Positions 11,988 through 49,313 of a stretch of DNA of 64,000 nucleotides are shown in pieces. Positions within the stretch are counted from its first letter, which is position 1. Each line of letters starts with the position of its first letter. Both the position numbers and the translations under genes were made by a program. Below the pieces are notes generated by a model that was given only the letters and a program-made list of their open reading frames with translations, had not been told where the DNA came from and searched no databases. The DNA comes from Clostridia bacterium (GTDB taxonomy: Bacteria > Bacillota > Clostridia > Oscillospirales > CAG-272), in contig JAFTSW010000053.1 in NCBI GenBank assembly GCA_017467085.1, positions 7,782 to 71,781 on the forward strand, read 5' to 3'.

Positions 11988-12366
11988 AAAGCAGTCCTTT
12001 CCGCGCCGTATTTTCGGCGGCTTTTGTCAAGTCGGTGGATGTCACGGCTATATTGTAGCATAGCAAAACGAAAAAGTAAATACCTTTTGGAAAATTTCTT
12101 GAAAATATTTTCCTTTTTAGGTAAAATGCACAAAGAGGGAGGAAGCGCTTGCTGTGCCTTGCGCATCTTTGACAAGGGCGCCACAAGACGGCTAAAAACG
12201 CAAAAAAGGGGAAAACGGAAAAATTTTTGACACCGCTTATATATAATATAAAGGAAGAAAAGGAAAAAAAGCATCCGATTTTCGGAACAGGCGGGAAGCA
12301 AAAATGGGCAAAATGCTAAAAATTACATAAATGAAGGAAAAAACGGGAGAATTTTTTTGTACTTTA

Positions 12367-12395
12367 TTGACAAACGAAAAATAATATGGTACAAT
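12367..12395 (+). promoter_or_regulatory. candidate sigma-A promoter
   Basis: TTGACA, 17 nt, TG-extended TACAAT, about 75 nt upstream of the ATG at 12471. Confidence 0.5.
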
Positions 12396-12470
12396 GCATA
12401 GTAGAGGTGTATACCACAAAAGGCGCCCTTGGGAGCCTTTGCGTATCAATATTTTCAAGGAGAAAGAACC

Positions 12471-13556
12471 ATGAAGAAAAAAGTTTTACTTCCGCTCTTG
12501 CTCGTGGCAGTTATGCTGCTCGTTTCCATGATGGTATTTTCCGTTCATGCAGACGAATGCTCCGCAGGAGGCTCCCATGAGCCCAGCCCCCTTCCTCCCA
12601 CGTGTACAACGGGTAGATTTTGTACCAAGTGCTTCGAAGAGTTAGAGCCCCCCGCCGGTCACGCGTGGGATGAGGCTACCTGTGCTGCCCCCAAGACCTG
12701 CCGTACCTGCGGTGAGACGGAAGGCAAGAAGCTGCCCCACGACCCTAAGAATTACGACAGAGCAGAGCCTACCTGCACGGACCCCATCATTTGTACCGCT
12801 TGTATGCGTGAGGTTGAGCCCGCAAAGGGACACAACCCCGGCGCCGCTGCTGACTGCGGTCACGCACAGTGGTGCACCGATTGCAGCGCTTTGATTGCCA
12901 ACGCAACGGGTGAGCACGATTTTTCCGGTGCGGGTGAGGTTGTAAAGGCGCCCACTGCCGCCGGCGGCTTTGGCGAATGCCTGATTACCTGCGCTAACTG
13001 CGATGAGAAGATTCTGCAGCACTTCACCACCTTCGTTGCCTCGGATGATGCCAAGGCAAGCACCGTTGGCGGTACCGCCCAGCTTGCTTTGCAGTCTTAT
13101 CTTGACGTAAAGACCTTGAAGATTGCCAACTATTCGGGCGTCAAGCTGAACGGTAGCGACAAGCTTTTGCAGGTTGCGGACATTACGCTGTACGATGCAG
13201 AGGACGAGAGCTATCAGCCTAACGGAACTCTGCAGGTAAAGATGCTTCTGAACAAGTCCGCTGTTAAGTTTAACAAGGATGAGCTGAAGGTTTACCACAT
13301 CGCGGAGGACGGCAAGGCTACCGAGCTGACCGTTATCGCTGTTGAGGACGGTTACGTAACCTTTGAAACCACTCATTTCTCCGTTTTCGCCGTCGCCGTT
13401 GAGGGTGAAACCGGCGTTGCGGTTCTTGGCGGTTCCACGGGTATGCCCATTGGCGCCATCATCGGTATCATCGCAGGTGCCGTTGTACTGGTAGGCGGAG
13501 CCGCTGTTGCCGTGGTACTGATTCTGAAAAAGAAGAAGTCCGCTGCCGCACAATAA
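12471..13556 (+). CDS. cysteine-rich, C-terminally membrane-anchored surface protein (hypothetical)
   Basis: AAGGAG RBS. Signal peptide MKKKVLLPLLLVAVMLLVSMMVFSVHA. Five C-x(4-6)-C-x2-C repeat units. C-terminal TM helix followed by KKKKSAAAQ. Confidence 0.7.
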   Translation: MKKKVLLPLLLVAVMLLVSMMVFSVHADECSAGGSHEPSPLPPTCTTGRFCTKCFEELEPPAGHAWDEATCAAPKTCRTCGETEGKKLPHDPKNYDRAEPTCTDPIICTACMREVEPAKGHNPGAAADCGHAQWCTDCSALIANATGEHDFSGAGEVVKAPTAAGGFGECLITCANCDEKILQHFTTFVASDDAKASTVGGTAQLALQSYLDVKTLKIANYSGVKLNGSDKLLQVADITLYDAEDESYQPNGTLQVKMLLNKSAVKFNKDELKVYHIAEDGKATELTVIAVEDGYVTFETTHFSVFAVAVEGETGVAVLGGSTGMPIGAIIGIIAGAVVLVGGAAVAVVLILKKKKSAAAQ

Positions 13557-32932: not shown

Positions 32933-33068
32933 AGTGGAAAACTCCTTTGGAAAAATAAGATTGCACCACTATTATACACCCATAGGTGATAAAAGTCAAC
33001 CTATAAGTGATTAAAAAATAAACCCATAGGCGATATAATCAAGGTATAAAAGGGTGAGAGGTGTTGCT

Positions 33069-33383
33069 ATGGGTGATGAGAAGCTATTAAAGGAAATGGG
33101 TGTACGCATTGGGGAAAGACGGCGAGAGCTGCATTTTACCCAAGAGCTTCTGGCAGAGAAAATGGACGTTTCCGTCCAGATGATTTCTAATCTGGAGCTG
33201 GGCAAAAAAGCAATTCGCCCCGAAAATTTGATTAAGCTCTGCGACGTGCTTGGCGTCAGCGCCGACTATATTTTGCGTGGCAACCGCTCGGACGGAGAGC
33301 TACACAGCTTTATGGAAGCGTTTTCTGCTTTATCCTACGAGAAGCAAAGATTGCTCGAAAGTATCGTTGATACCTGGAAATAA
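33069..33383 (+). CDS. XRE-family HTH transcriptional regulator
   Basis: ATG at 33069 behind GAGAGGTG. HTH_3 motif LHFTQELLAEKMDVSVQMISNLELGKKAIRPENL. TATAAT at 33033-33038. Confidence 0.8.
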   Translation: MGDEKLLKEMGVRIGERRRELHFTQELLAEKMDVSVQMISNLELGKKAIRPENLIKLCDVLGVSADYILRGNRSDGELHSFMEAFSALSYEKQRLLESIVDTWK

Positions 33384-37569: not shown

Positions 37570-37694
37570 TTTATAGCTCCTATCGTCTGTTATTTTTGTT
37601 TGCGCATATATTGTAACACAAATGTGTTCAATTGTCAACATATGTATTCAATAAAAACAGGCAGAAACAGTACAATATTCTTGAGGTGATGAGT

Positions 37695-37949
37695 ATGCTG
37701 CAAGAATATCTGGATTCTGTAATCGTTGGCGAATCTATCGCATATTTCCGTCGGAAGAAAAATGCGTCGCAAGAGGTTTTAAGCGGACTTGCCGATATCG
37801 GCAGAACGCATCTGAGCGCCATAGAACGAGGCACGCGCAAGCCGACGTTGGAAACGCTTTACCGTATTAGCTGCGCTTTGAACGTGAAAATGAGTGAGAT
37901 TGTGACGGATATTGAAAAGCGGCTTGAGGAAGCCAAGGACCGCAGATAG
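37695..37949 (+). CDS. XRE-family HTH transcriptional regulator
   Basis: ATG behind GAGGTG. HTH_3 motif ASQEVLSGLADIGRTHLSAIERGTRKPTLETL. Confidence 0.75.
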   Translation: MLQEYLDSVIVGESIAYFRRKKNASQEVLSGLADIGRTHLSAIERGTRKPTLETLYRISCALNVKMSEIVTDIEKRLEEAKDRR

Positions 37950-41954: not shown

Positions 41955-43100
41955 ATGAAACGAATAAAATCCGATAAAATTATAGTAGATGACCGTATCC
42001 TTGACGGGTACGTGTATTTTGAGGGCGGCAGGATAGTGGAGCTGACCCAAAGGGAGCTACCCGTTTCCGAGGAATACGATATGACGGGCTATTACGTCAG
42101 CCCCGGCTTTGTGGATATACATACCCACGGCGGTGGCGGCTATCGGTTTGAGGGAAGCGTGGAGGAGATAATCGGCGGCTGCAATTTTCATTTGCGCCAC
42201 GGGACCACCTCTATCTGTCCCACCGTATCTGCCGCGCCCCTTGCGGATATGGCGGCATCCGTTGCCAACGTGTGGGCGGCTATACAGGACAAACGGGTTA
42301 AGGGGACGCTTATAGGCGCCCATTTAGAGGGCCCCTATCTTTCCTTCAAGCAGGCAGGCGCCCAAGCCGCCTCCTTCTTGACGCCTCCCGACGCGGCGGC
42401 GTATATGCCCTTTTTGGAAAAATATGCGCCTGCTATTGCCAGATGGACCTACGCCCCCGAAAATGATAGGGACGGGCGCTTTGTACGGGCGTTGCAAAAG
42501 CACGGCATTGTTGCCTCTATGGGGCATACCGACGGGGTGTACGAGGATGCGGTACGGGCATATGAGGGCGGGTGCGAGCTGGTTACGCATCTTTATTCCT
42601 GCACCTCTACCGTCACACGGGAGCAGGGCTTCCGGCGGCTTGGCGTGATTGAGAGCGCTTATCTTTTGGACGGAATGAAGGTTGAAATTATATGCGACGG
42701 AAAGCACTTGCCCCCGGAGCTTATCCGCCTGGTTTACAAAATAAAGGGGGCAAAGAGCATTGCCCTTGTCACCGACAGCCTTGCCCTGGCAGGGACAGAC
42801 AAGACGCACGGCTTTATGCAGGGCACCGAGTTTATCATAGAGGACGGCGTTTGCAAGCTGATGGACAGAAGCGCCTTTGCGGGAAGCATCGCAACGGCAG
42901 AGCGCCTGGTGCGTGTGGCGGTAGAGGAGGCGGGGCTTCCGCTGACCGAGGCTGTCAGTATGATGACCGCAACCCCCGCAAGCATCATGAAGCTGGCGCG
43001 CAAGGGCAGGCTTGCCCCCGATATGGATGCGGATTTCGCCATCTTTGACCCCGCCTTCACCGTGCAGGCGGTGTTTGTCGGCGGCGAGCGGCAGGTATAG
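41955..43100 (+). CDS. N-acetylglucosamine-6-phosphate deacetylase paralog
   Basis: SPGFVDIHTHGGGGY, HLEGPYL, SMGHT, VTHLYS, LVTDS blocks. Divergent from the nagA at 34850..35995. Confidence 0.8.
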   Translation: MKRIKSDKIIVDDRILDGYVYFEGGRIVELTQRELPVSEEYDMTGYYVSPGFVDIHTHGGGGYRFEGSVEEIIGGCNFHLRHGTTSICPTVSAAPLADMAASVANVWAAIQDKRVKGTLIGAHLEGPYLSFKQAGAQAASFLTPPDAAAYMPFLEKYAPAIARWTYAPENDRDGRFVRALQKHGIVASMGHTDGVYEDAVRAYEGGCELVTHLYSCTSTVTREQGFRRLGVIESAYLLDGMKVEIICDGKHLPPELIRLVYKIKGAKSIALVTDSLALAGTDKTHGFMQGTEFIIEDGVCKLMDRSAFAGSIATAERLVRVAVEEAGLPLTEAVSMMTATPASIMKLARKGRLAPDMDADFAIFDPAFTVQAVFVGGERQV

Positions 43101-43183
43101 CACCCTACAAAAATGAAAAAGAGAAAATAAATCGGCAAAACCGAAATATCCTCTCTTTTTTGTTATCTTTTGCAGCGTAGAAA

Positions 43184-43678
43184 TCAATAAAGGGAGAGCA
43201 GAATAAAATTCGCGACCATGGAGCACTGCCTAATCGTTAAAAGAAATATACCAAACCACATAAAAAGCTTGTAGCCTACCGGCTTTACGTGCTTCATCAA
43301 AAACAGATTGATGCAAGCGCTTAAACCGCTAATCGCGCCGCCTATGGCGCCACCGACAATGGGCATAATCATACAAAGCTGTGGAACATTTCCCCATACT
43401 AACACAAACACAAAAATCAAGGCAGAGCAAAGGAACTCGTACCACTTGTAAGACTCGGATAGCTGTATCACGTCCTGATCGATGTATAAGGTTGCGCCTG
43501 TTAAAAAGCTTCCTTTGATTCGGCAATCCAAATCTCCGTTTTCACTGCTTAACGTAAAGACGTTTCTCTTTTTCTTTGTCAATTTTTCTCCATTAACGGT
43601 AAGCTCGCGTTTCCCCGTCCAAAAATTTTCATTATACTCTATTTGGCCGTATCCAACGTGGTGTGTACTTGCTTTCAT
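43184..43678 (-). CDS. membrane protein: N-terminal soluble domain of about 90 aa plus three TM helices (hypothetical)
   Basis: AAGGAGG RBS. 164 aa. Last gene of the AT-rich cassette. Confidence 0.6.
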   Translation of the reverse strand: MKASTHHVGYGQIEYNENFWTGKRELTVNGEKLTKKKRNVFTLSSENGDLDCRIKGSFLTGATLYIDQDVIQLSESYKWYEFLCSALIFVFVLVWGNVPQLCMIMPIVGGAIGGAISGLSACINLFLMKHVKPVGYKLFMWFGIFLLTIRQCSMVANFILLSLY

Positions 43679-43699
43679 ATCAATAAGCCTCCTTTTTGG

Positions 43700-44407
43700 T
43701 TAATTGGCTTTTAGAAGCTTGCATTTTTGCTCTCTTTTTTTCATCAATTCAATAAGCGAGGCGGCATTTGCTTTCGCGACGTCTACGTCCTCTGCTTCGA
43801 CAGCATCAGCAAAGGCTTTGAACTGTCCTTCTATTTGAGAATCAAGCGCAGAGAGCGCATCGTTTGTCATAGAATCGCTATAACGTATTGCTTCGTACAC
43901 CTTTTTAGCTTCCTCAAAAAGCTCATCTGTTTTTGCCGCGTTCATAAGAGCTTGTGCATCAACGGTAAGGCTCTTCATGAAAAATGTTTGTGCTTTTATT
44001 TTCTCGTCTATATCGCTGACAACACCTGCGGCGGCAGTTGCTTTGAGAACGGCAACGGTCTGGAACGCAAGTGTTATTGCGCATACGATGATGCCTATCC
44101 ATTCAGGAAGCACGGGGATTACCATAAATATGCTTCCCGCAATCAGCATAGCACCAAGTCCATCGTAGCTAAGAGAAATCAGCGGAATTCTGTAAAAAAA
44201 CTTTTTGAGGTTATTTGCCTTAAATGCGAAAAACGCACAAACAAGTTGACCGACAAATGCTACCGTGATGAATATGTAGCCTATCCAAAAGGAATGGGTG
44301 AATTTGCTGGCACCACCGATTTCTTTCGGGGTAACAAAAACGATAACGTTGAAAACCGCAAGGCATAACGCCCATATTAAAGAATATATTCTGAAGCTCT
44401 TTTTCAT
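43700..44407 (-). CDS. membrane protein: four TM helices plus a helical C-terminal domain of about 100 aa (hypothetical)
   Basis: GGGAGGAA RBS. 235 aa. C-terminal amphipathic/coiled region (KVYEAIRYSDSMTNDALSALDSQIEGQF). Confidence 0.65.
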   Translation of the reverse strand: MKKSFRIYSLIWALCLAVFNVIVFVTPKEIGGASKFTHSFWIGYIFITVAFVGQLVCAFFAFKANNLKKFFYRIPLISLSYDGLGAMLIAGSIFMVIPVLPEWIGIIVCAITLAFQTVAVLKATAAAGVVSDIDEKIKAQTFFMKSLTVDAQALMNAAKTDELFEEAKKVYEAIRYSDSMTNDALSALDSQIEGQFKAFADAVEAEDVDVAKANAASLIELMKKREQKCKLLKAN

Positions 44408-44422
44408 TCGTCTTTTCCTCCC

Positions 44423-45595
44423 TTATCTCTTTGTTCCGCACTTGGGGCAGAATTGACCGGGACGTTCAAATTTGTAACCGCAGCTTGCGCAAGTGTCATT
44501 TGCCTTGGCTACTGCCGTTCCGCACGCATCGCAGAATGCCGCATTGGGAACGAGCTTTGCGCCGCAGTTGTCGCAGAAGCCGCCTTCTGCCGCGGCAGGA
44601 GCAGCGGGGGTGGTATTATGGAGCGCATCGCCTACGGCGTTGCCAACAACACCGCCTACGACACCGCCAACCCCCGCCATCGTGCCGAGCCCAACGCCCA
44701 GGTTGGTCATCTGACCGACAGCTTCGTTGGAAGCCACCTTTTCCGCAACGTCAAATCCACGCTCTTGCGCATAGGTGTATCCCTCCTGCGCGCGCTTGGT
44801 TGCCTGCGCCTGCGAATCGATAACAAGCCGTTGTGCCTCGGTTTCCGCGTCAATCACGCTAACCTGCTGACGAAGCTTTGCCTCGGCAATATCAGCATAC
44901 TGACGGAAATGGAGTTCCTTGAATTTTTCGTACTGTCTTTCACCGTCAGGCTTGACAACAGTGGTAACAAAGAACTGTTCAAGAGCAACGCCGTATTCCG
45001 CAAAATCGTTGATAAGGAGCTTTTTGATGGCATCGGAGAAAGTGGCAAGGTTCTCATCAATCTCAAAAACATTGATAGCATTCGACTTCATTACTTGCGC
45101 AATATAGGTTTTGACTCTCGTCATAAGGAATGCGCGGAAGAAGCTGACAAGCGTTTGCTGGTTGAGGAGGGTTTCCGTTCCCACCAATTTGAGAAGCATC
45201 TTTTTTGCGTTGTCAGCGCGCAGGGACAGCTCGCCCGATGCGCCTATGGAGATTGGAAATCTGTATGTGGGTTCAATATACTGTACCTTAGAATCCGTCC
45301 CCCATTTGATAGACATTTGCTCGGTCTTGTTGATAAAATAGACCTCGCAATGAAAGGGGGTTGCGTCGCCCGTGGCAAGGTTTAGCGCCTTGCCAATCAA
45401 CGGAATGTTCTGTGTTTCCAGTGTATAGCGACCGGGACCGAACGAGTCAAGCGCCTGACCGTTCAAGAAGAAGATAGCTTCCTGGCTTTCGTGAACGATA
45501 AGCTGTGTCAGAGAATTAAAATCCTCGTAAGGATGCTTCCAGATAAAGGTGCTGTTGTCACCCTCATATTTAATGATATCTGCAATTTTGGGCAT
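44423..45595 (-). CDS. SPFH/Band-7 domain protein with a C-terminal Gly-rich linker and a double zinc ribbon (COG4260 / YdjI-like)
   Basis: N-terminus MPKIADIIKYEGDNSTFIWKHPYEDFNSLTQLIVHESQEAIFFLNG. Coiled region AEAKLRQQVSVIDAETEAQRL. C-terminus CDNCG..CDACG..CASCG..CPKCG. AAGGAGG RBS. Confidence 0.8.
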   Translation of the reverse strand: MPKIADIIKYEGDNSTFIWKHPYEDFNSLTQLIVHESQEAIFFLNGQALDSFGPGRYTLETQNIPLIGKALNLATGDATPFHCEVYFINKTEQMSIKWGTDSKVQYIEPTYRFPISIGASGELSLRADNAKKMLLKLVGTETLLNQQTLVSFFRAFLMTRVKTYIAQVMKSNAINVFEIDENLATFSDAIKKLLINDFAEYGVALEQFFVTTVVKPDGERQYEKFKELHFRQYADIAEAKLRQQVSVIDAETEAQRLVIDSQAQATKRAQEGYTYAQERGFDVAEKVASNEAVGQMTNLGVGLGTMAGVGGVVGGVVGNAVGDALHNTTPAAPAAAEGGFCDNCGAKLVPNAAFCDACGTAVAKANDTCASCGYKFERPGQFCPKCGTKR

Positions 45596-45660
45596 AAGGT
45601 ACCTCCTTAATGTGTGGAAAATTTTGTTTTATAAATCCTAAAGATTGGTTTTTGCGCTTC

Positions 45661-45689
45661 ATTCTACCGTCACAAAAACGCATAAGCAA
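45661..45689 (-). promoter_or_regulatory. candidate internal sigma-A promoter for the SPFH/membrane genes
   Basis: Minus strand reads TTGCTT, 17 nt, TAGAAT, about 65 nt upstream of the SPFH ATG. Confidence 0.4.
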
Positions 45690-45735
45690 AACGGCGATAA
45701 GGATAAGAGAGAAGGTTTGTGGCTGTATCGCCGTT
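45690..45735 (-). terminator. stem-loop directly after the TIR gene
   Basis: 10-bp stem aacggcgata / tatcgccgtt with a 26-nt loop, followed on the minus strand by TTGCTT. The large loop makes it a weak terminator. Confidence 0.4.
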
Positions 45736-45741
45736 CAAATT

Positions 45742-47742
45742 TTACTTAATTGCCTGTTCCTCGTTAATCCAGGTTGCCTTGAAAACGAAATCAAAATGCT
45801 TTTTAGCCTCTTGATATTGATATATCTCACATTTCCAACCCACAAAATGGTATCCCGCTCGTTCCGAGGTAAGCAAGCCCGAAAACATCGCTTCGGAGGT
45901 ATAGAGTATCTCGTTGGAATCTGAGCCTATAAGAATTCCGCCCTCGCATTGGTACACGATATGCACGGTGATGCCACCCTCCAAAAAGTCGCGGATAGAG
46001 GCTTCGTAGCCTACATTTTTTTCGACTATTTGTTTAAGCTTCGCCTCTTCTATTGCTTCGTCAAATTTTGGAATTGTTTGCTTTAGCAGGGTGGTTTCCT
46101 TCGCTTCCTTCAAAAGAGCGATGGCATCGTCAAACTTTTTCTCTTCTATCATTTCTAATGCGGCATTGTATTGTGCATTGGGAACGACAATGCGAGAAAT
46201 AAGAACGTATGCCACAGCCGAGATGAGAGCGGCAATCAGTACACATATACCGATAATCAAAATTCTTTTCTTGGCTTTTTTTATGGCAATCTTGCGGTCT
46301 TCTTCTTTTCTTCGTTGCTCCAGACGCAGTTGCTCCCATTCTTCCTGAAGGGCATCTATTTTTTCTTGGCAGGCTGCCACGCATTGCTCCGCATCAAGAT
46401 AATCCAAAACAGACAGAAAAAGCTTTTTGGCGCTCTTACAGGTGGGGATATCCCTTGCGTTGTTCAACAAGGCTTTCGCCTTTTCATAAACCTCGTTCTT
46501 CTTTTTATTATCAATACGAGTATGGACCGTTTGCAGCGTATGCAAAAGCTCGTTTTTAAGTTTTTCGCTTGCAAATTGCAGGGCCTTCTTAAAATTATTG
46601 CTATCTGCGAAGGATGTTTCACTGTTGGCAAGCTCGCCCTTGCTTTTTAAGCGCAATTCCACTAACAGCTTACCCACATAACCCTCGGCGTTTTCGGGCT
46701 CCTGATTCAATATCTGCTCATAAAAGGCATCCGCAATGTCAAATTCTCCGTCTGCCAATGCCATGGACGCTCTTTTGAAAAGGGGCTCTGTAGCGGCATT
46801 AAAGCCTGTAGCGATAGTTTTTTTGTTAACTGTATTGCTTTGATTATCGAATCCAATAATCTTTTTGATTCCGCGAATCAAATCCTGCATAAAGCCCAGC
46901 TTTGACATATCCTGCGCCTGCAGATGAGAAAACTCCTCGGGCAGGTCATACGGGTCCATATATCTGTATGCCGGGATAAGCACCTTCTTTTCGCCGCTTT
47001 TGATAAGCGCAAGGAATCGACTCCACTCGTTCCTTACCCAAACGGCGTTGAAGTATTCGGGACGAGTGCCAAGAACCACCATTATCTTTGCGGAATGCAA
47101 TGCCGCAAATATGTACGGCTCGTATGCTATACCAAGTTTGTCTTCCAAGGTGATGCGAGAGAAAAACACCTTGAAGCCCTCGCGTGTCAGCTCGTTATAA
47201 AGCTCGGTCGCAAGGACGCTGTCCGGCGTTCTTCTGCCACTTGCGTCGGTTTCTTTATAGCAGATGAACACATCAAAAGGATCTTCCTTTTGCGAGATGG
47301 CAAGGAACCCCTTCTGAATTTCGTTGATAGCCGTTGCTTCCGCTTCATATATCTCACGCTGGTGCTCGTCGGCGTTAGCAATAGCGGATTTGTAGTCTTC
47401 ATCGTCAAAGATGGAGGTGAACTGTGCGCGGTTTACCGTGGGAACCCTCTTATGCGTCACAGGATCTTCTACGTATTCAACTCCATAGCGGCAAAGAACA
47501 ATCGACCAATATGCCTCGGCATCGGTGCTGTCCTCGTCCAGAATGGTTTCATAAATGCCCATCGCCTTGTCAAAATCATTGTTGCGACGAAAGTGATTTG
47601 CTCTGTCATAGTGATTGGCGCGGCGCTCATTGTCAAGCTTTGGCAGCGTTTGTCTTGTACCGCAGTATTCGCAAACAGCGACGGACTGCGCGCTACCTAA
47701 TTCAAGCGAGCCGCCGCAGATTTTGCACTTAAAGATTGCCAT
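45742..47742 (-). CDS. Zn-ribbon / TPR-like / TIR domain / coiled-coil / single TM / extracellular Flg_new-repeat protein
   Basis: 666 aa.
- Zn ribbon: CKICG...CEYCG (aa 6-28).
- TIR blocks: FDVFICYKE (aa 156-164), GFKVFF, IMVVLG, FNAVWVRNEWSRF (aa 231-243).
- TM: a basic stretch RRKEEDRKIAIKKAKKR followed by the TM helix ILIIGICVLIAALISAVAYVLI (aa 494-515).
- C-terminus: GYHFVGW...ATW repeat. Confidence 0.85.
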   Translation of the reverse strand: MAIFKCKICGGSLELGSAQSVAVCEYCGTRQTLPKLDNERRANHYDRANHFRRNNDFDKAMGIYETILDEDSTDAEAYWSIVLCRYGVEYVEDPVTHKRVPTVNRAQFTSIFDDEDYKSAIANADEHQREIYEAEATAINEIQKGFLAISQKEDPFDVFICYKETDASGRRTPDSVLATELYNELTREGFKVFFSRITLEDKLGIAYEPYIFAALHSAKIMVVLGTRPEYFNAVWVRNEWSRFLALIKSGEKKVLIPAYRYMDPYDLPEEFSHLQAQDMSKLGFMQDLIRGIKKIIGFDNQSNTVNKKTIATGFNAATEPLFKRASMALADGEFDIADAFYEQILNQEPENAEGYVGKLLVELRLKSKGELANSETSFADSNNFKKALQFASEKLKNELLHTLQTVHTRIDNKKKNEVYEKAKALLNNARDIPTCKSAKKLFLSVLDYLDAEQCVAACQEKIDALQEEWEQLRLEQRRKEEDRKIAIKKAKKRILIIGICVLIAALISAVAYVLISRIVVPNAQYNAALEMIEEKKFDDAIALLKEAKETTLLKQTIPKFDEAIEEAKLKQIVEKNVGYEASIRDFLEGGITVHIVYQCEGGILIGSDSNEILYTSEAMFSGLLTSERAGYHFVGWKCEIYQYQEAKKHFDFVFKATWINEEQAIK

Positions 47743-47753
47743 GATGCTCTCCT

Positions 47754-47948
47754 CTATTTGTTGTCAATAACTTCTATGTTTTCAATAGAAAACGCGAGGC
47801 ACTTCTGAATGATTTCGTTGCGCGTGCGCCCCGTTTGCTCTGCAATCGTATCGAGCTTTTCTATCATATCATTAGGAAGCCTTACAGACACCACAGAAGA
47901 ATCTCCGCGAAATTTTTTGGATGATATTACAAGCTTTTTGTCAGACAT
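47754..47948 (-). CDS. ribbon-helix-helix (CopG/Arc-like) DNA-binding protein
   Basis: 64 aa. VVSVRLPNDMIEKLDTIAEQTGRTRNEIIQKCL fits the beta-strand / helix / helix RHH pattern. AGGAGGAA RBS. The stop lies 11 nt before the TIR gene ATG. Confidence 0.75.
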   Translation of the reverse strand: MSDKKLVISSKKFRGDSSVVSVRLPNDMIEKLDTIAEQTGRTRNEIIQKCLAFSIENIEVIDNK

Positions 47949-47987
47949 TGTTTGTATTCCTCCTATTTGTAGTTCGTTGCTATGTAT

Positions 47988-48017
47988 AGTATATCACATT
48001 TGTAGTGTTTTTGTCAA
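47988..48017 (-). promoter_or_regulatory. candidate sigma-A promoter of the RHH-TIR unit
   Basis: Minus strand reads TTGACA, 18 nt, TG-extended TATACT, about 40 nt upstream of the RHH ATG. Flanked and overlapped by a 9-bp direct repeat ACTACAAAT. Confidence 0.6.
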
Positions 48018-48065
48018 CGGTTTTATAAAAATATTGTAATTAAGGGGCAACAAAGCCTGATGCTT

Positions 48066-48166
48066 GCGCTTGTTTCCGCACATACCTGCTTCAAATCTGA
48101 AAGCGACTATCTTCAAAAGTTAATAAAAAAACCAAGCCTTTCGACTTGGTTTTTGGTGCTAGGTAG
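48066..48166. repeat. direct repeat copy 1 (about 100 nt)
   Basis: gcgcttgtttccgcacatacctgcttcaaatctgaaagcgactatcttcaaaagttaataaaaaaaccaagcctttcgacttggtttttggtgc. Matches 48682..48781 with 2 substitutions and 1 indel by eye. Confidence 0.85.
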
Positions 48167-48360
48167 AAGCGGCGCATTTGGCGAAAGCATCGGGCGCGCT
48201 TGTTTTGCGCCGCCTGCAAATATCCCTTGCGGTCTCATGACCGCATTTTGCAAGCAAAAACGGGATATTTCGCGATTGGTTGCGTTTTTAAGCTGTTGAA
48301 CCTTCATTCCGCTTCGCAGAATGAACGAGGTTCAACCCAAAATCAAGGCGTAAGCCTTGC

Positions 48361-48513
48361 ATATCATCCGCAATTTATTGCGGCATATCATCAGCCCGAA
48401 GGGCTGGATATCATCATTGCGAAAGAGTATACAGCCTACGGCTGATGATATACTCGCCTTGACGAGAGGTGCTCGTCAAGGCGGATGATATACACGCTAA
48501 GGCGTGATGATAT
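48361..48513. repeat. three direct plus three inverted copies of ATATCATC with interleaved short hairpins
   Basis: ATATCATC at 48361, 48385 and 48408. GATGATAT at 48444, 48484 and 48506. Each pair of motif copies is separated by a small GC-rich hairpin. Confidence 0.8.
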
Positions 48514-48580
48514 ACCATTGCTTTCGCAATGGATAAAAAACAACCTAAATTGTCCCTTGCGGTTCAATTTAGGTTGTTTT

Positions 48581-48705
48581 TGGTGCAGGTATGAAACTTG
48601 CTTTGCAAGTTTTGGAGTTAGAACCTGTATGCCCGTGAAGGCACTAGAACCTGACGCTCGCGCGTCTGCCGAAGCGCCTCGGCGCTTGTTTCCGCACATA
48701 CCTGC
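48581..48705 (-). pseudogene. degenerate tRNA-Leu-like copy with hairpin insertions
   Basis: Minus strand reads GCAGGTATGTGCGGAA[ACAAGCGCCGAGGCGCTTC]GGCAGACGCG..TCAGGTTCTAGTGCCTTCACGGGCATACAGGTTCTAACTCC[AAAACTTGCAAAGCAAGTTTCA]TACCTGCACCA.
- The acceptor stem, variable arm and CCA are identical to the neighbouring tRNA-Leu.
- The 5' strand of the anticodon stem and the 3' strand of the T stem are disrupted. Confidence 0.6.
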
Positions 48706-48781
48706 TTCAAATCTGAAAGCAGCTATCTTCAAAAGTTAATAAAAAAACCAAGCCTTTCGACTTGGTTTTTGGTGCAGGTAG
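48682..48781. repeat. direct repeat copy 2 (about 100 nt)
   Basis: See copy 1. Spans the 5' end of the tRNA-like copy, a spacer, a terminator hairpin and the 3' end of the intact tRNA-Leu. Confidence 0.85.
48741..48769 (-). terminator. rho-independent terminator after tRNA-Leu
   Basis: Minus strand reads aaaaaccaag tcgaaagg cttggttttttt, immediately 3' of the CCA end. Confidence 0.7.
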
Positions 48782-48856
48782 CAGGAGTTGAACCTGTATG
48801 CCCGTGAAGGCACTAGAACCTGAATCTAGCGCGTCTGCCAATTCCGCCATACCTGC
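48770..48856 (-). tRNA. tRNA-Leu (anticodon CAG), type II with a long variable arm and encoded CCA
   Basis: Minus strand reads GCAGGTATGGCGGAATTGGCAGACGCGCTAGATTCAGGTTCTAGTGCCTTCACGGGCATACAGGTTCAACTCCTGCTACCTGCACCA.
- 7-bp acceptor stem GCAGGTA / TACCTGC.
- Anticodon stem CTAGA / TCTAG with loop TTCAGGT.
- T-loop TTCAACT. Confidence 0.85.
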
Positions 48857-49284
48857 ATATTAACTTTTGGAAGCAACCTGCTTTTGAAAGCAAGCTTGCT
48901 TTCGATTCCGCTTTAGTGTCATTGCTTTTTCGCCGAGCCAAGGCCCGTCGAAAAGCAAGACACCCGAGGATACCCTTTAGGGTGTCCTACCGTTTGCACG
49001 GCACGTTGCAACCGTCCATTCCGCTTACGGCGAATCATCACCTTGTGCGGAAAACGGCTTTACTGTCTGCGCGATGTATCCCGAGGATACCCCGCAGGGG
49101 AGCAAAATCGCAACGAATGAATTGTATCACAAGTCAATGGTTTTGTCAAGCCCTTTCACAAAATTTTTTCGTTCTTATCGCAAAAAAACCAAAAAAATCG
49201 CAAAAAAGCGTTTTTTTGTAGGTTTTTTCAAGAAAAAATGGGAATTTGCGCCACAATTAGGGGGAAAATGGCGTGTTTTTTGCG

Positions 49285-49313
49285 TTGCAAAGCGCCGCCT
49301 TCTATGCTACAAT
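49285..49313 (+). promoter_or_regulatory. candidate sigma-A promoter
   Basis: TTGCAA, 17 nt, TACAAT, about 70 nt upstream of the ATG at 49381. Confidence 0.5.

Follow-up and report, generated by a model that had tools for sequence, protein, structure and literature searches.

A TIR receptor, an SPFH protein and a four-helix membrane protein as a conserved gene core in gut Clostridia: a candidate conflict system

The bacterial TIR systems known to us sense infection inside the cell. In Thoeris, multiple thsB genes can accompany one thsA, and the ThsB proteins are typically soluble and short. Here we describe a five-gene operon from a 64,000-nucleotide (nt) stretch of the Clostridia bacterium contig JAFTSW010000053.1 (the whole of this stretch is called the window below), which encodes a single-pass TIR receptor next to an SPFH protein. 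In our best model, which is drawn from sequence, the locus would be a TIR-based conflict system unlike the described ones in its partners and in the layout of its receptor. Parts of it have precedents. In the PspA-SamGHI (YdjGHI) membrane-stress module of Bacillus subtilis, YdjI/SamI is a soluble SPFH protein with a low-complexity Gly-rich region and a C-terminal Zn finger (PMC8581546), and is brought to the membrane by the Zn-ribbon transmembrane (TM) protein YdjG/SamG together with YdjH/SamH (PMC8581546; PMC9239133); the Zn-ribbon of YdjG has been reported as being of the Zn_Ribbon_TF Pfam type (PMC9239133). SamI restrains signalling by SamGH, and its loss leads to a constitutive stress signal (preprint 10.64898/2026.02.06.704340). 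Other SPFH proteins form cages around membrane clients, as in HflK/C-FtsH and QmcA-YbbJ (10.64898/2026.02.06.704340). Finally, the conflict systems of multicellular bacteria that are varied by diversity-generating retroelements (DGRs) employ STAND or MoxR-vWA NTPases, and their hosts are cyanobacteria, Chromatiales and similar groups (PMC7159879; PMC10907252).

The five open reading frames (ORFs) of the operon lie on the minus strand and are named g1 to g5 in its 5' to 3' direction; coordinates are those of the window unless a related locus is named.

47754-47948, minus strand: g1, 64 amino acids (aa), ribbon-helix-helix (RHH) protein, probable autoregulator
45742-47742, minus strand: g2, 666 aa, single-pass TIR receptor
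44423-45595, minus strand: g3, 390 aa, soluble SPFH (Band_7_1) protein with a double Zn-ribbon
43700-44407, minus strand: g4, 235 aa, orphan 4-TM protein with a cytoplasmic C-terminal helical bundle
43184-43678, minus strand: g5, 164 aa, soluble N-terminal domain followed by three TM helices

The original prediction, made from the letters of the window, had described five co-directional minus-strand genes separated by 11, 146, 15 and 21 nt, and ORF calling gave exactly these gaps for g1-g2, g2-g3, g3-g4 and g4-g5, respectively.

A scan of one genome per GTDB species revealed 410 stretches encoding a g2 relative among 185,579 species representatives. The best 80 of these 410, together with five loci from metagenomes, constitute the 85 related loci (L numbers) on which the following comparisons are based. 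Almost all of the best 80 are from gut or rumen Clostridia, namely Oscillospiraceae, Acutalibacteraceae, Ruminococcus, Lachnospiraceae (including Roseburia intestinalis and a complete Hominifimenecus genome), Christensenellales and Anaerovoracaceae; one record is labelled Absicoccus. Using tblastn, an SPFH gene was found to adjoin the TIR gene on the same strand in 65 of the 85 loci, and g4 was present in about 62; most of the remaining loci without an SPFH neighbour are short contigs. Clustering of all 1,483 ORFs returned three widely recurrent families, TIR (79 loci, 102 ORFs), SPFH (63 loci) and g4 (60 loci), which are always co-oriented. Dozens of unrelated genomic contexts share this gene order, the flanks differing from locus to locus. 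Three layouts were seen: the RHH-TIR-SPFH-g4 order of the window; SPFH-g4-X-TIR; and combinations with as many as four TIR paralogs per SPFH-g4 pair, a single pair being accompanied by several TIR paralogs in L020, L043 and L046, for example. Accidental adjacency of the cassette genes was considered and is rejected by the synteny across the 85 loci. The conserved core thus consists of three genes, coding for the TIR receptor, the SPFH-DZR protein and g4, plus an optional RHH gene. All five genes had initially been put forward as one unit; the core stood, while the RHH gene proved to be optional (it lies directly 5' of the TIR gene in 27/85 loci, so that about one third of operons are headed by it) and g5 accompanies the cassette only in the closest clade.

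The receptor g2 was analysed further, and its principal features are as follows.

46900-47271, minus strand: TIR domain of g2 (residues 158-281, TIR_2)
47026-47028, minus strand: candidate catalytic Glu, E239 of g2, invariant in 99/99 paralogs
46192-46263, minus strand: TM helix of g2 (approximately residues 494-517), with the basic stretch RRKEEDRKIAIKKAKKR before it
45745-46185, minus strand: ectodomain of g2 (residues 520-666), a helical linker and one degenerate Flg_new-like beta unit (GYHFVGW)

The protein is ordered as a cytoplasmic Zn-ribbon, TPR, TIR domain, helical repeats and long helix, then the TM helix, and then a short extracellular C-terminus. Pfam identified TIR_2 at residues 158-281 (E = 2.5e-11; 44.6 bits versus a gathering cut-off of 28) and TPR_14 (E = 8.8e-8). 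Among 99 full-length paralogs the TIR block is the best-conserved part of the family, conservation being about 45% beyond residue 420, and two sets of residues are invariant in 99/99: C6, C9, C24 and C27 of the Zn-ribbon, and W235, V236, N238, E239 and W240, which form a WxxxE-type motif. When the TIR profile of the g2 family was compared with PDB, a single sequence was matched, the TLR15/TLR2 TIR domain (7ylf_A; E = 9.7e-5), in which the family WVKNE is aligned to the WCQYE of the Toll-like receptor (TLR); a PDB sequence search with g2 itself returned TPR matches and noise alone. We take the E239 position to be that of the catalytic glutamate of TIR enzymes. The TM helix has a hydropathy peak of 2.83, with seven Lys or Arg residues on its N-terminal side versus two on its C-terminal side. 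Because this basic flank lies N-terminal of the helix, the positive-inside rule places g2 N-in/C-out, the N-terminal ~490 residues being cytoplasmic and residues 520-666 extracellular. No Flg_new, LRR or other family was found by Pfam in the ectodomain of the window protein. BLAST aligned residues 592-658 (E = 4e-4) with true Flg_new repeats in P0003, a relative of 924 aa, and both P0001 and P0003 continue with three to five canonical Flg_new repeats where the window g2 ends. The domain calls made at the outset were therefore upheld for RHH, TIR, TPR, Zn-ribbon, SPFH and DZR and for the number of TM helices, while that of Flg_new is sub-threshold, with no Pfam match and the BLAST value just given.

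g2 belongs to a family of more than 8,000 homologs, clustered at 90% identity. Their first ~545 residues are 52-75% identical, while the C-terminal parts differ: on a constant head, the ectodomain is swapped among Flg_new, DUF6273, LRR_5/LRR_8 and RCC1 types, paralogs P0023 and P0040 being among those with an LRR_5 or LRR_8 ectodomain. The N-terminal 150 residues of g2 match 4,918 representatives of 50%-identity clusters, 2,435 of them at E <= 1e-30. In the best 150 matches, which are proteins of 216-3,073 aa, the module lies at or near the N-terminus, starting at residue 1 in almost all. One constant head is thus combined with a very wide range of bodies, and the variable ectodomain behaves as a fast-evolving, putatively ligand-binding module.

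In five of the related loci (L057, L012, L032, L041 and L059) an Avd-like (bAvd) gene, a template repeat (TR) and a reverse transcriptase (RT) gene are located just 3' of a TIR paralog. For two of them the variable repeat (VR) was aligned to the template.

L057, VR 12312-12435, TR 13026-13149: DGR, 18/20 mismatches on template adenines
L012, VR 12424-12550, TR 13117-13243: DGR, 16/17 mismatches on template adenines

The adenine-biased mismatches in L057 and L012 are the signature of a DGR. In both, the variable repeat lies at the 3' end of the TIR gene, within the part for the DUF6273 ectodomain; DUF6273 is also the DGR-variable domain of target proteins of Faecalibacterium phages (PMC11792537). 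In the window, neither an RT gene nor an Avd gene was found in the cassette or in those flanks that were scanned, and 42800-49300 contained no template/variable repeat pair. Eight loci have a tyrosine recombinase gene directly 5' of the SPFH gene. In the four examined, perfect inverted repeats of 21-31 nt with a shared core flank a segment of 116-236 nt between the recombinase gene and the SPFH start.

L048:7281-7548, L026:6154-6422, L012:6954-7131 and L066:7797-8076: invertible segments, each with the recombinase gene just upstream

In L048 the promoter of the segment faces the SPFH gene, and the opposite arrangement occurs in L026 and L066. Since the segments of L048 and L026 align when one of them is reverse-complemented (score 92 versus 26 in the forward direction) while the flanking genes are co-oriented, the comparison indicates an invertible, phase-variable promoter captured in its ON and OFF states.

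The SPFH protein g3 is soluble and consists of a Band_7_1 domain (Pfam, E = 1.4e-35), a coiled coil, a Gly-rich hydrophobic segment (approximately residues 294-320) and a C-terminal double Zn-ribbon (DZR, E = 6.4e-9). The Gly positions of the hydrophobic segment are near-invariant and the segment is glycine-zipper-like. A PDB sequence search with g3 gave nothing useful, and profiles of the SPFH and g4 families had no significant match in PDB, the values for the SPFH profile against QmcA and Erlin (E = 0.27 and 0.64) being not significant. g4 has no match in Pfam, PADLOC, NCBIfam or PHROGs, and its 846 homologs are all unnamed. Hydropathy and an AlphaFold2 (AF2) model agree on four TM helices, and the model adds a C-terminal helical bundle. 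A g4 gene follows the SPFH gene in about 60/85 loci and is its constant partner. Several architectural variants were noted in the related loci. The SPFH proteins encoded at L024:6202-8052 and L046:3664-5523 are long, with four extra Zn-ribbons at the N-terminus and three or four at the C-terminus. Long g4 proteins, at L043:14016-15341 and L038:3956-5059, are fused to an N-terminal TM helix and an LRR_5-like outer domain. A mini-paralog of g2 (L013:7597-8247) has the same Zn-ribbon head and a TM helix, together with a DUF6591 ectodomain and no TIR domain. Because of this TIR-less mini-paralog and the other architectural variants, the Zn-ribbon head looks like a docking module common to the clients of the SPFH-g4 pair.

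The ends of the operon carry candidate regulatory sequences.

47988-48017, minus strand: operon promoter, TTGACA, 18 nt, TATACT, with a TG extended -10 (consensus match 11/12)
47965-48006, minus strand: candidate RHH operator, two direct ACTACAAAT boxes, read from the sequence
43132-43144, minus strand: terminator-like hairpin 3' of g5, weak, from a pattern scan alone

g1 matches Pfam RHH_1 (E = 6.9e-7) and the PHROG for CopG-like repressors (E = 4.9e-8), the sole meaningful PHROGs match of the cassette. We aligned the regions upstream of the RHH gene from 12 related loci, the more distal flanks of which are unrelated. All of them have TTGACA as the -35 hexamer, and the extended -10 is conserved as well. 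Box 1 (47998-48006), which lies inside the promoter spacer, is nearly invariant across the 12 loci; box 2 (47965-47973) lies downstream of the -10, and a second (ACTACAA) box is present downstream in most. Since the two direct repeats overlap the promoter, binding of the RHH protein to them would make a plausible operator. The five genes are probably one transcript because no conserved separate promoter was found before the SPFH gene.

The last gene, g5, has three TM segments after a soluble N-terminus, as judged by hydropathy, and belongs to no Pfam family. Only 87 homologs were found in 5.8 billion proteins. Apart from the window, only six close relatives (L001 and L006-L010) have it together with the cassette, and more distant homologs (43-64% identity) are found in unrelated contexts without TIR, SPFH or g4. 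The possibility that g5 is a component of the system was rejected on these grounds; g5 is lineage-specific cargo in a variable slot and not part of the core. Elsewhere the slot after g4 holds variable small soluble proteins (e.g. L067:1999-2592, L016:9528-9989, L031:9408-10001, L026:8418-9086 and L047:6562-7386). The slot cargo of related loci includes matches to HEPN RiboL-PSP (E = 6e-14), weak matches to HEPN pEK499_p136 (E = 4e-5 to 5e-6) and DUF2971 proteins, the L026 member of which matches the PADLOC defence candidate PDC-S31 (E = 6e-27). These proteins may be alternative effectors or independent cargo. We do not claim a SIR2 protein in the slot of L024, which had no Pfam match and a weak PADLOC SIR2 match (E = 2.6e-4).

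The TIR/SPFH/g4 system is undescribed within the searchable literature and belongs to no named system, as had been suspected from the letters of the window. PADLOC gave 0 matches in the cassette. NCBIfam contained no specific model, the match of g2 to Thoeris ThcB4 (26.7 bits; E = 2.3e-6) being far below the cut-off of 220. A systematic survey of TIR systems from 2025 and its supplements contained no SPFH, Band_7 or zinc-ribbon terms, and literature searches for TIR with SPFH, membrane-anchored bacterial TIR, and gut DGR with TIR yielded no description of the system. The partner genes of known TIR systems, likewise said at the outset to be missing, were not found: PADLOC detected no CD-NTase, cyclase, Argonaute or STAND NTPase, either within the cassette or in ~10 kb of flank, and partners of CBASS, Pycsar, SPARTA or Avs were absent among the listed recurrent families in the neighbour scans of related loci.

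We propose that the locus encodes a conflict system in which TIR receptors signal outside-in and an SPFH scaffold gates them, a reading that is unproven and to which we give a probability of about 0.45. Starting from linkage, topology, the conservation pattern, DGR targeting, the inverton and promoter conservation, all as observed above, we infer the following physical interactions, enzymatic activity, ligand and outcome. g4 would anchor an oligomeric g3 scaffold at the membrane, and this scaffold would hold one or several TIR receptors inactive and apart, possibly via their Zn-ribbon heads. The trigger would be the binding of an external ligand by the ectodomain, most plausibly a phage or competitor surface structure, or alternatively a local membrane disturbance, upon which the receptors would cluster or leave the scaffold. 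The TIR domains would then assemble into an active enzyme, and NAD+ consumption or a signal derived from ADP-ribose (ADPR) would lead to cell arrest or death. The RHH protein would repress the operon from the two ACTACAAAT boxes, and g5 would be accessory cargo. Gating by the SPFH protein is suggested because SamI restrains its membrane partners, and by analogy the SamI precedent would be the best available guide to the action of g3 on g2. Like the clients of SPFH cages, the membrane protein or proteins encoded beside g3 could plausibly be enclosed or regulated; unlike those cage proteins, g3 lacks its own TM anchor and is accompanied by neither an NfeD nor a protease partner. The system may serve in defence, for which the DGR-mutated ectodomains, the invertible promoters and the HEPN or DUF2971/PDC-S31 cargo of related loci provide indirect support.

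Several observations weigh against this proposal. The flanks of the window cassette are metabolic genes (nagA, nagB and a gene for a BNR-repeat protein) and form no defence island, and all five cassette proteins were without a PADLOC match. The neighbours of the related loci are a mix of housekeeping and mobile or defence-candidate genes, for which there is no baseline. Of the earlier expectation that the genes would co-occur and lie in defence islands, the first half holds, TIR, SPFH and g4 being found together in ~60/85 loci; enrichment in islands is not claimed, given the mixed neighbour scans without a baseline. In six loci whose flanks extend for at least 4 kb in each direction, a TIR paralog occurs without SPFH or g4. 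The AF2 model of g2 is confident at residues 30-150 and 320-480, while the TIR core has a predicted local distance difference test (pLDDT) score of 45-70; Foldseek recovered TPR proteins alone with this model and not the TIR fold, and the fold and active site are assigned from sequence evidence only. The AF2 model of g4 found no fold match with E < 0.2. Furthermore, little may be bound by the ectodomain of the window g2, a minimal one of about 147 aa that contains a single degenerate repeat.

Animal TLRs invite a broader comparison. Like them, g2 has an ectodomain, a single TM helix and, in the cytoplasm, a TIR domain, and LRR ectodomains occur in some g2 paralogs elsewhere. The polarity of g2 is reversed, however, with the TIR domain N-terminal; there is no signal peptide, the window ectodomain is not of the LRR type, and the output would probably be enzymatic rather than adaptor recruitment. 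The resemblance is confined to the TIR domain, and common descent of the whole receptor is not implied. The most far-reaching form of our proposal, that gut Clostridia possess a very large family of TLR-like outside-in receptors, with shuffled or DGR-rewritten ectodomains, silenced by a flotillin-like SPFH cage, which would detect phages or competitors at the cell surface before DNA entry through a repertoire open to somatic diversification, is in our opinion less likely than not, though it has a realistic chance. Were it true, it would add a new sensing compartment to bacterial immunity and provide the closest functional parallel so far to animal TLRs; it would also be the first defence-type role for an SPFH protein of the SamI/YdjI class, and would account for a large family, as yet without a name, of gut and rumen metagenomes (at 90% identity, more than 8,000 clusters; 4,918 50%-identity representatives with the head). 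DGR targeting of a TIR receptor, for its part, connects a putative immune receptor of human-associated bacteria with programmed hypermutation. As in the known DGR conflict systems, related loci hypermutate a C-terminal CLec-type sensor, here attached to TIR. They differ from those systems in having no NTPase, an extracellular sensor, SPFH and g4 as partners, and gut Clostridia as hosts; the window itself, moreover, is without a DGR.

Thoeris (types I-XI) shares with the locus a TIR domain with a conserved catalytic-type Glu, the frequent presence of several TIR genes with one constant partner module and, in some types, membrane-protein partners. It is possible, but unlikely, that the receptors work in the Thoeris manner, making a diffusible ADPR-derived nucleotide that would be bound by an SPFH-g4 effector, through the helical bundle of g4 or the Zn-ribbons of g3, which would then disrupt the membrane, e.g. 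via the Gly-rich segment of g3. The several TIR paralogs per SPFH-g4 pair would suit such a scheme, as would the conserved glycine-zipper-like hydrophobic segment of g3 and the weak match of the g2 TIR domain to NCBIfam ThcB4 (E = 2.3e-6), although at 26.7 bits versus 220 this match is well short of the cut-off. Among newly described Thoeris effectors, many are either TM proteins or without a known function (10.64898/2025.12.03.692087), which would leave room for an effector like g3-g4. Against it, Pfam and PADLOC found no SLOG, Macro, SAVED or SLATT signal-binding domain in g3, g4 or g5, and no SIR2-SLOG, Macro-TM, caspase-like, DUF2270 or SLATT partner in these genes or the flanks. Unlike ThsB, the TIR domain of g2 is tethered to the membrane in a single-pass receptor with a large, conserved Zn-ribbon/TPR head and an ectodomain, and its partner is an SPFH scaffold, whose homolog SamI is a regulator and not a killer (10.64898/2026.02.06.704340).

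A little less likely still is an envelope-stress or membrane-surveillance module, in which a SamGHI-like sensor with added TPR and TIR would have a physiological rather than an anti-phage output, NAD-linked or exerted via protein-protein contacts. The architectures of the two modules are parallel: g3 has that of SamI/YdjI (Band_7_1, Gly-rich segment, DZR); g2 has an invariant N-terminal CxxC...CxxC and one TM helix, which may correspond to those of SamG as described; and g4 is a second small membrane protein alongside, as is SamH, compared by position. Homologs of g2 also gave weak Zn_Ribbon_TF matches at residues 4-29 (Pfam, E = 0.04-0.13), the same Pfam type as that of YdjG, and the genes flanking the window cassette are ordinary metabolic ones. 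On the other hand, no pspA gene is linked to the cassette in the window, and no further family recurs in the 85 loci. The TPR, TIR and variable ectodomain of g2 are foreign to SamG, and the g2/g3/g4 family is patchy (410 stretches in 185,579 species representatives), multi-paralog and associated with mobile elements, the window cassette being of low GC content. Hypervariable or DGR-rewritten ectodomains, paralog arrays, invertible promoters and HEPN or DUF2971 cargo would not be expected of a housekeeping sensor. If the locus should nevertheless be a stress sensor, it would show an elaboration of the SamGHI module outside Bacillus.

We regard it as improbable that the g2 family represents variable surface adhesins, or proteins for interaction with hosts or glycans, with the ectodomain as the working part, for adhesion in the gut, and the head, SPFH and g4 providing only anchoring, sorting or turnover. 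Flg_new, LRR_5 (BspA-type), RCC1 and DUF6273 are typical surface or binding domains, and DGRs and invertible promoters are reported to vary surface adhesins commonly in gut bacteria (bioRxiv 10.1101/2024.11.15.621889), which would fit such a function. Anchoring leaves unexplained, however, why the strongest conservation is in the cytoplasmic TIR block with its invariant catalytic-type Glu; in addition, the window g2 keeps its entire head with almost no ectodomain, and HEPN and DUF2971 cargo is found inside the operons.

An RHH-TIR addiction module of the toxin-antitoxin kind, carried by a small mobile islet on which SPFH, g4 and g5 would be passengers, is highly improbable: the RHH protein, encoded 11 nt upstream of the TIR gene in a low-GC, tRNA-adjacent cassette with repeat scars, does resemble BrnA, RelB and CopG antitoxins below their NCBIfam cut-offs, but it occurs in only 27/85 loci and is thus missing from about two thirds, in contrast to the nearly constant SPFH and g4; its partner, a membrane receptor of 666 aa, does not resemble type II toxins, and the arrangement of promoter and boxes fits simple autoregulation.

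With regard to its surroundings, the operon was said at the outset to lie in a compositionally distinct AT-rich block beside a tRNA-Leu gene and repeat scars. The GC content is 43-51% across 43-49 kb versus 52-59% in the flanks, and ARAGORN, Rfam and a repeat search located the following features.

48770-48856, minus strand: tRNA-Leu(CAG) (ARAGORN; Rfam 47.9 bits)
48066-48159 and 48682-48775: 94-nt direct repeat, 98% identical, the second copy overlapping the tRNA 3' end
48621-48670: 50-nt partial tRNA copy (repeat search)
48576-48591: 16-nt copy of the tRNA 3' end (repeat search)

The repeat scars suggest past integrations at the tRNA gene. No integrase was found, a repeat search of 42800-49300 gave no att-like repeat at the distal end of the cassette, and there was no empty insertion site, all three contigs encoding an identical NagA carrying the cassette. 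Integrases, resolvases and Tn7-like genes occur near related loci; in L002:1-6182 a Tn7-like module (TnsA-like, TnsB-like and two TniQ) lies directly upstream of an RHH-TIR-SPFH-g4 cassette, which is followed by a second TIR paralog of ~2,625 aa. Carriage of the system by phages or plasmids was rejected, since tblastn of the cassette against INPHARED phages and PLSDB plasmids gave no match and IMG/VR contained one locus among 2.9 million contigs. In this locus (L086:1836-4908) a GH25 lysozyme-like gene and a serine recombinase gene abut an SPFH-g4-TIR module, which is beside a prophage edge and not clearly phage-encoded.

In the upstream flank of the window, small XRE-type helix-turn-helix (HTH) proteins encoded at 33054-33383 and 37632-37949 match the PADLOC models control-protein, capH and PDC-M69A (best E = 1e-11 to 7e-13), which probably reflects generic HTH similarity. 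Between the two copies of the 94-nt repeat, at 48340-48500, there are short repeats and palindromes built on GATGATAT(A/C), including a direct repeat (48440-48457 / 48480-48497) and an inverted repeat (48358-48371 / 48481-48494); this cluster may be the remnant of an earlier inserted element. Rfam identified nothing in the leader of the tRNA-Leu gene (48860-49150), which contains two 20-nt repeats, CCCGAGGATACCC..., at 48963-48982 and 49080-49099. A near-consensus promoter (TTGACA, 17 nt, TACAAT) is located at 49149-49121 on the minus strand, ~265 nt upstream of the tRNA-Leu gene.

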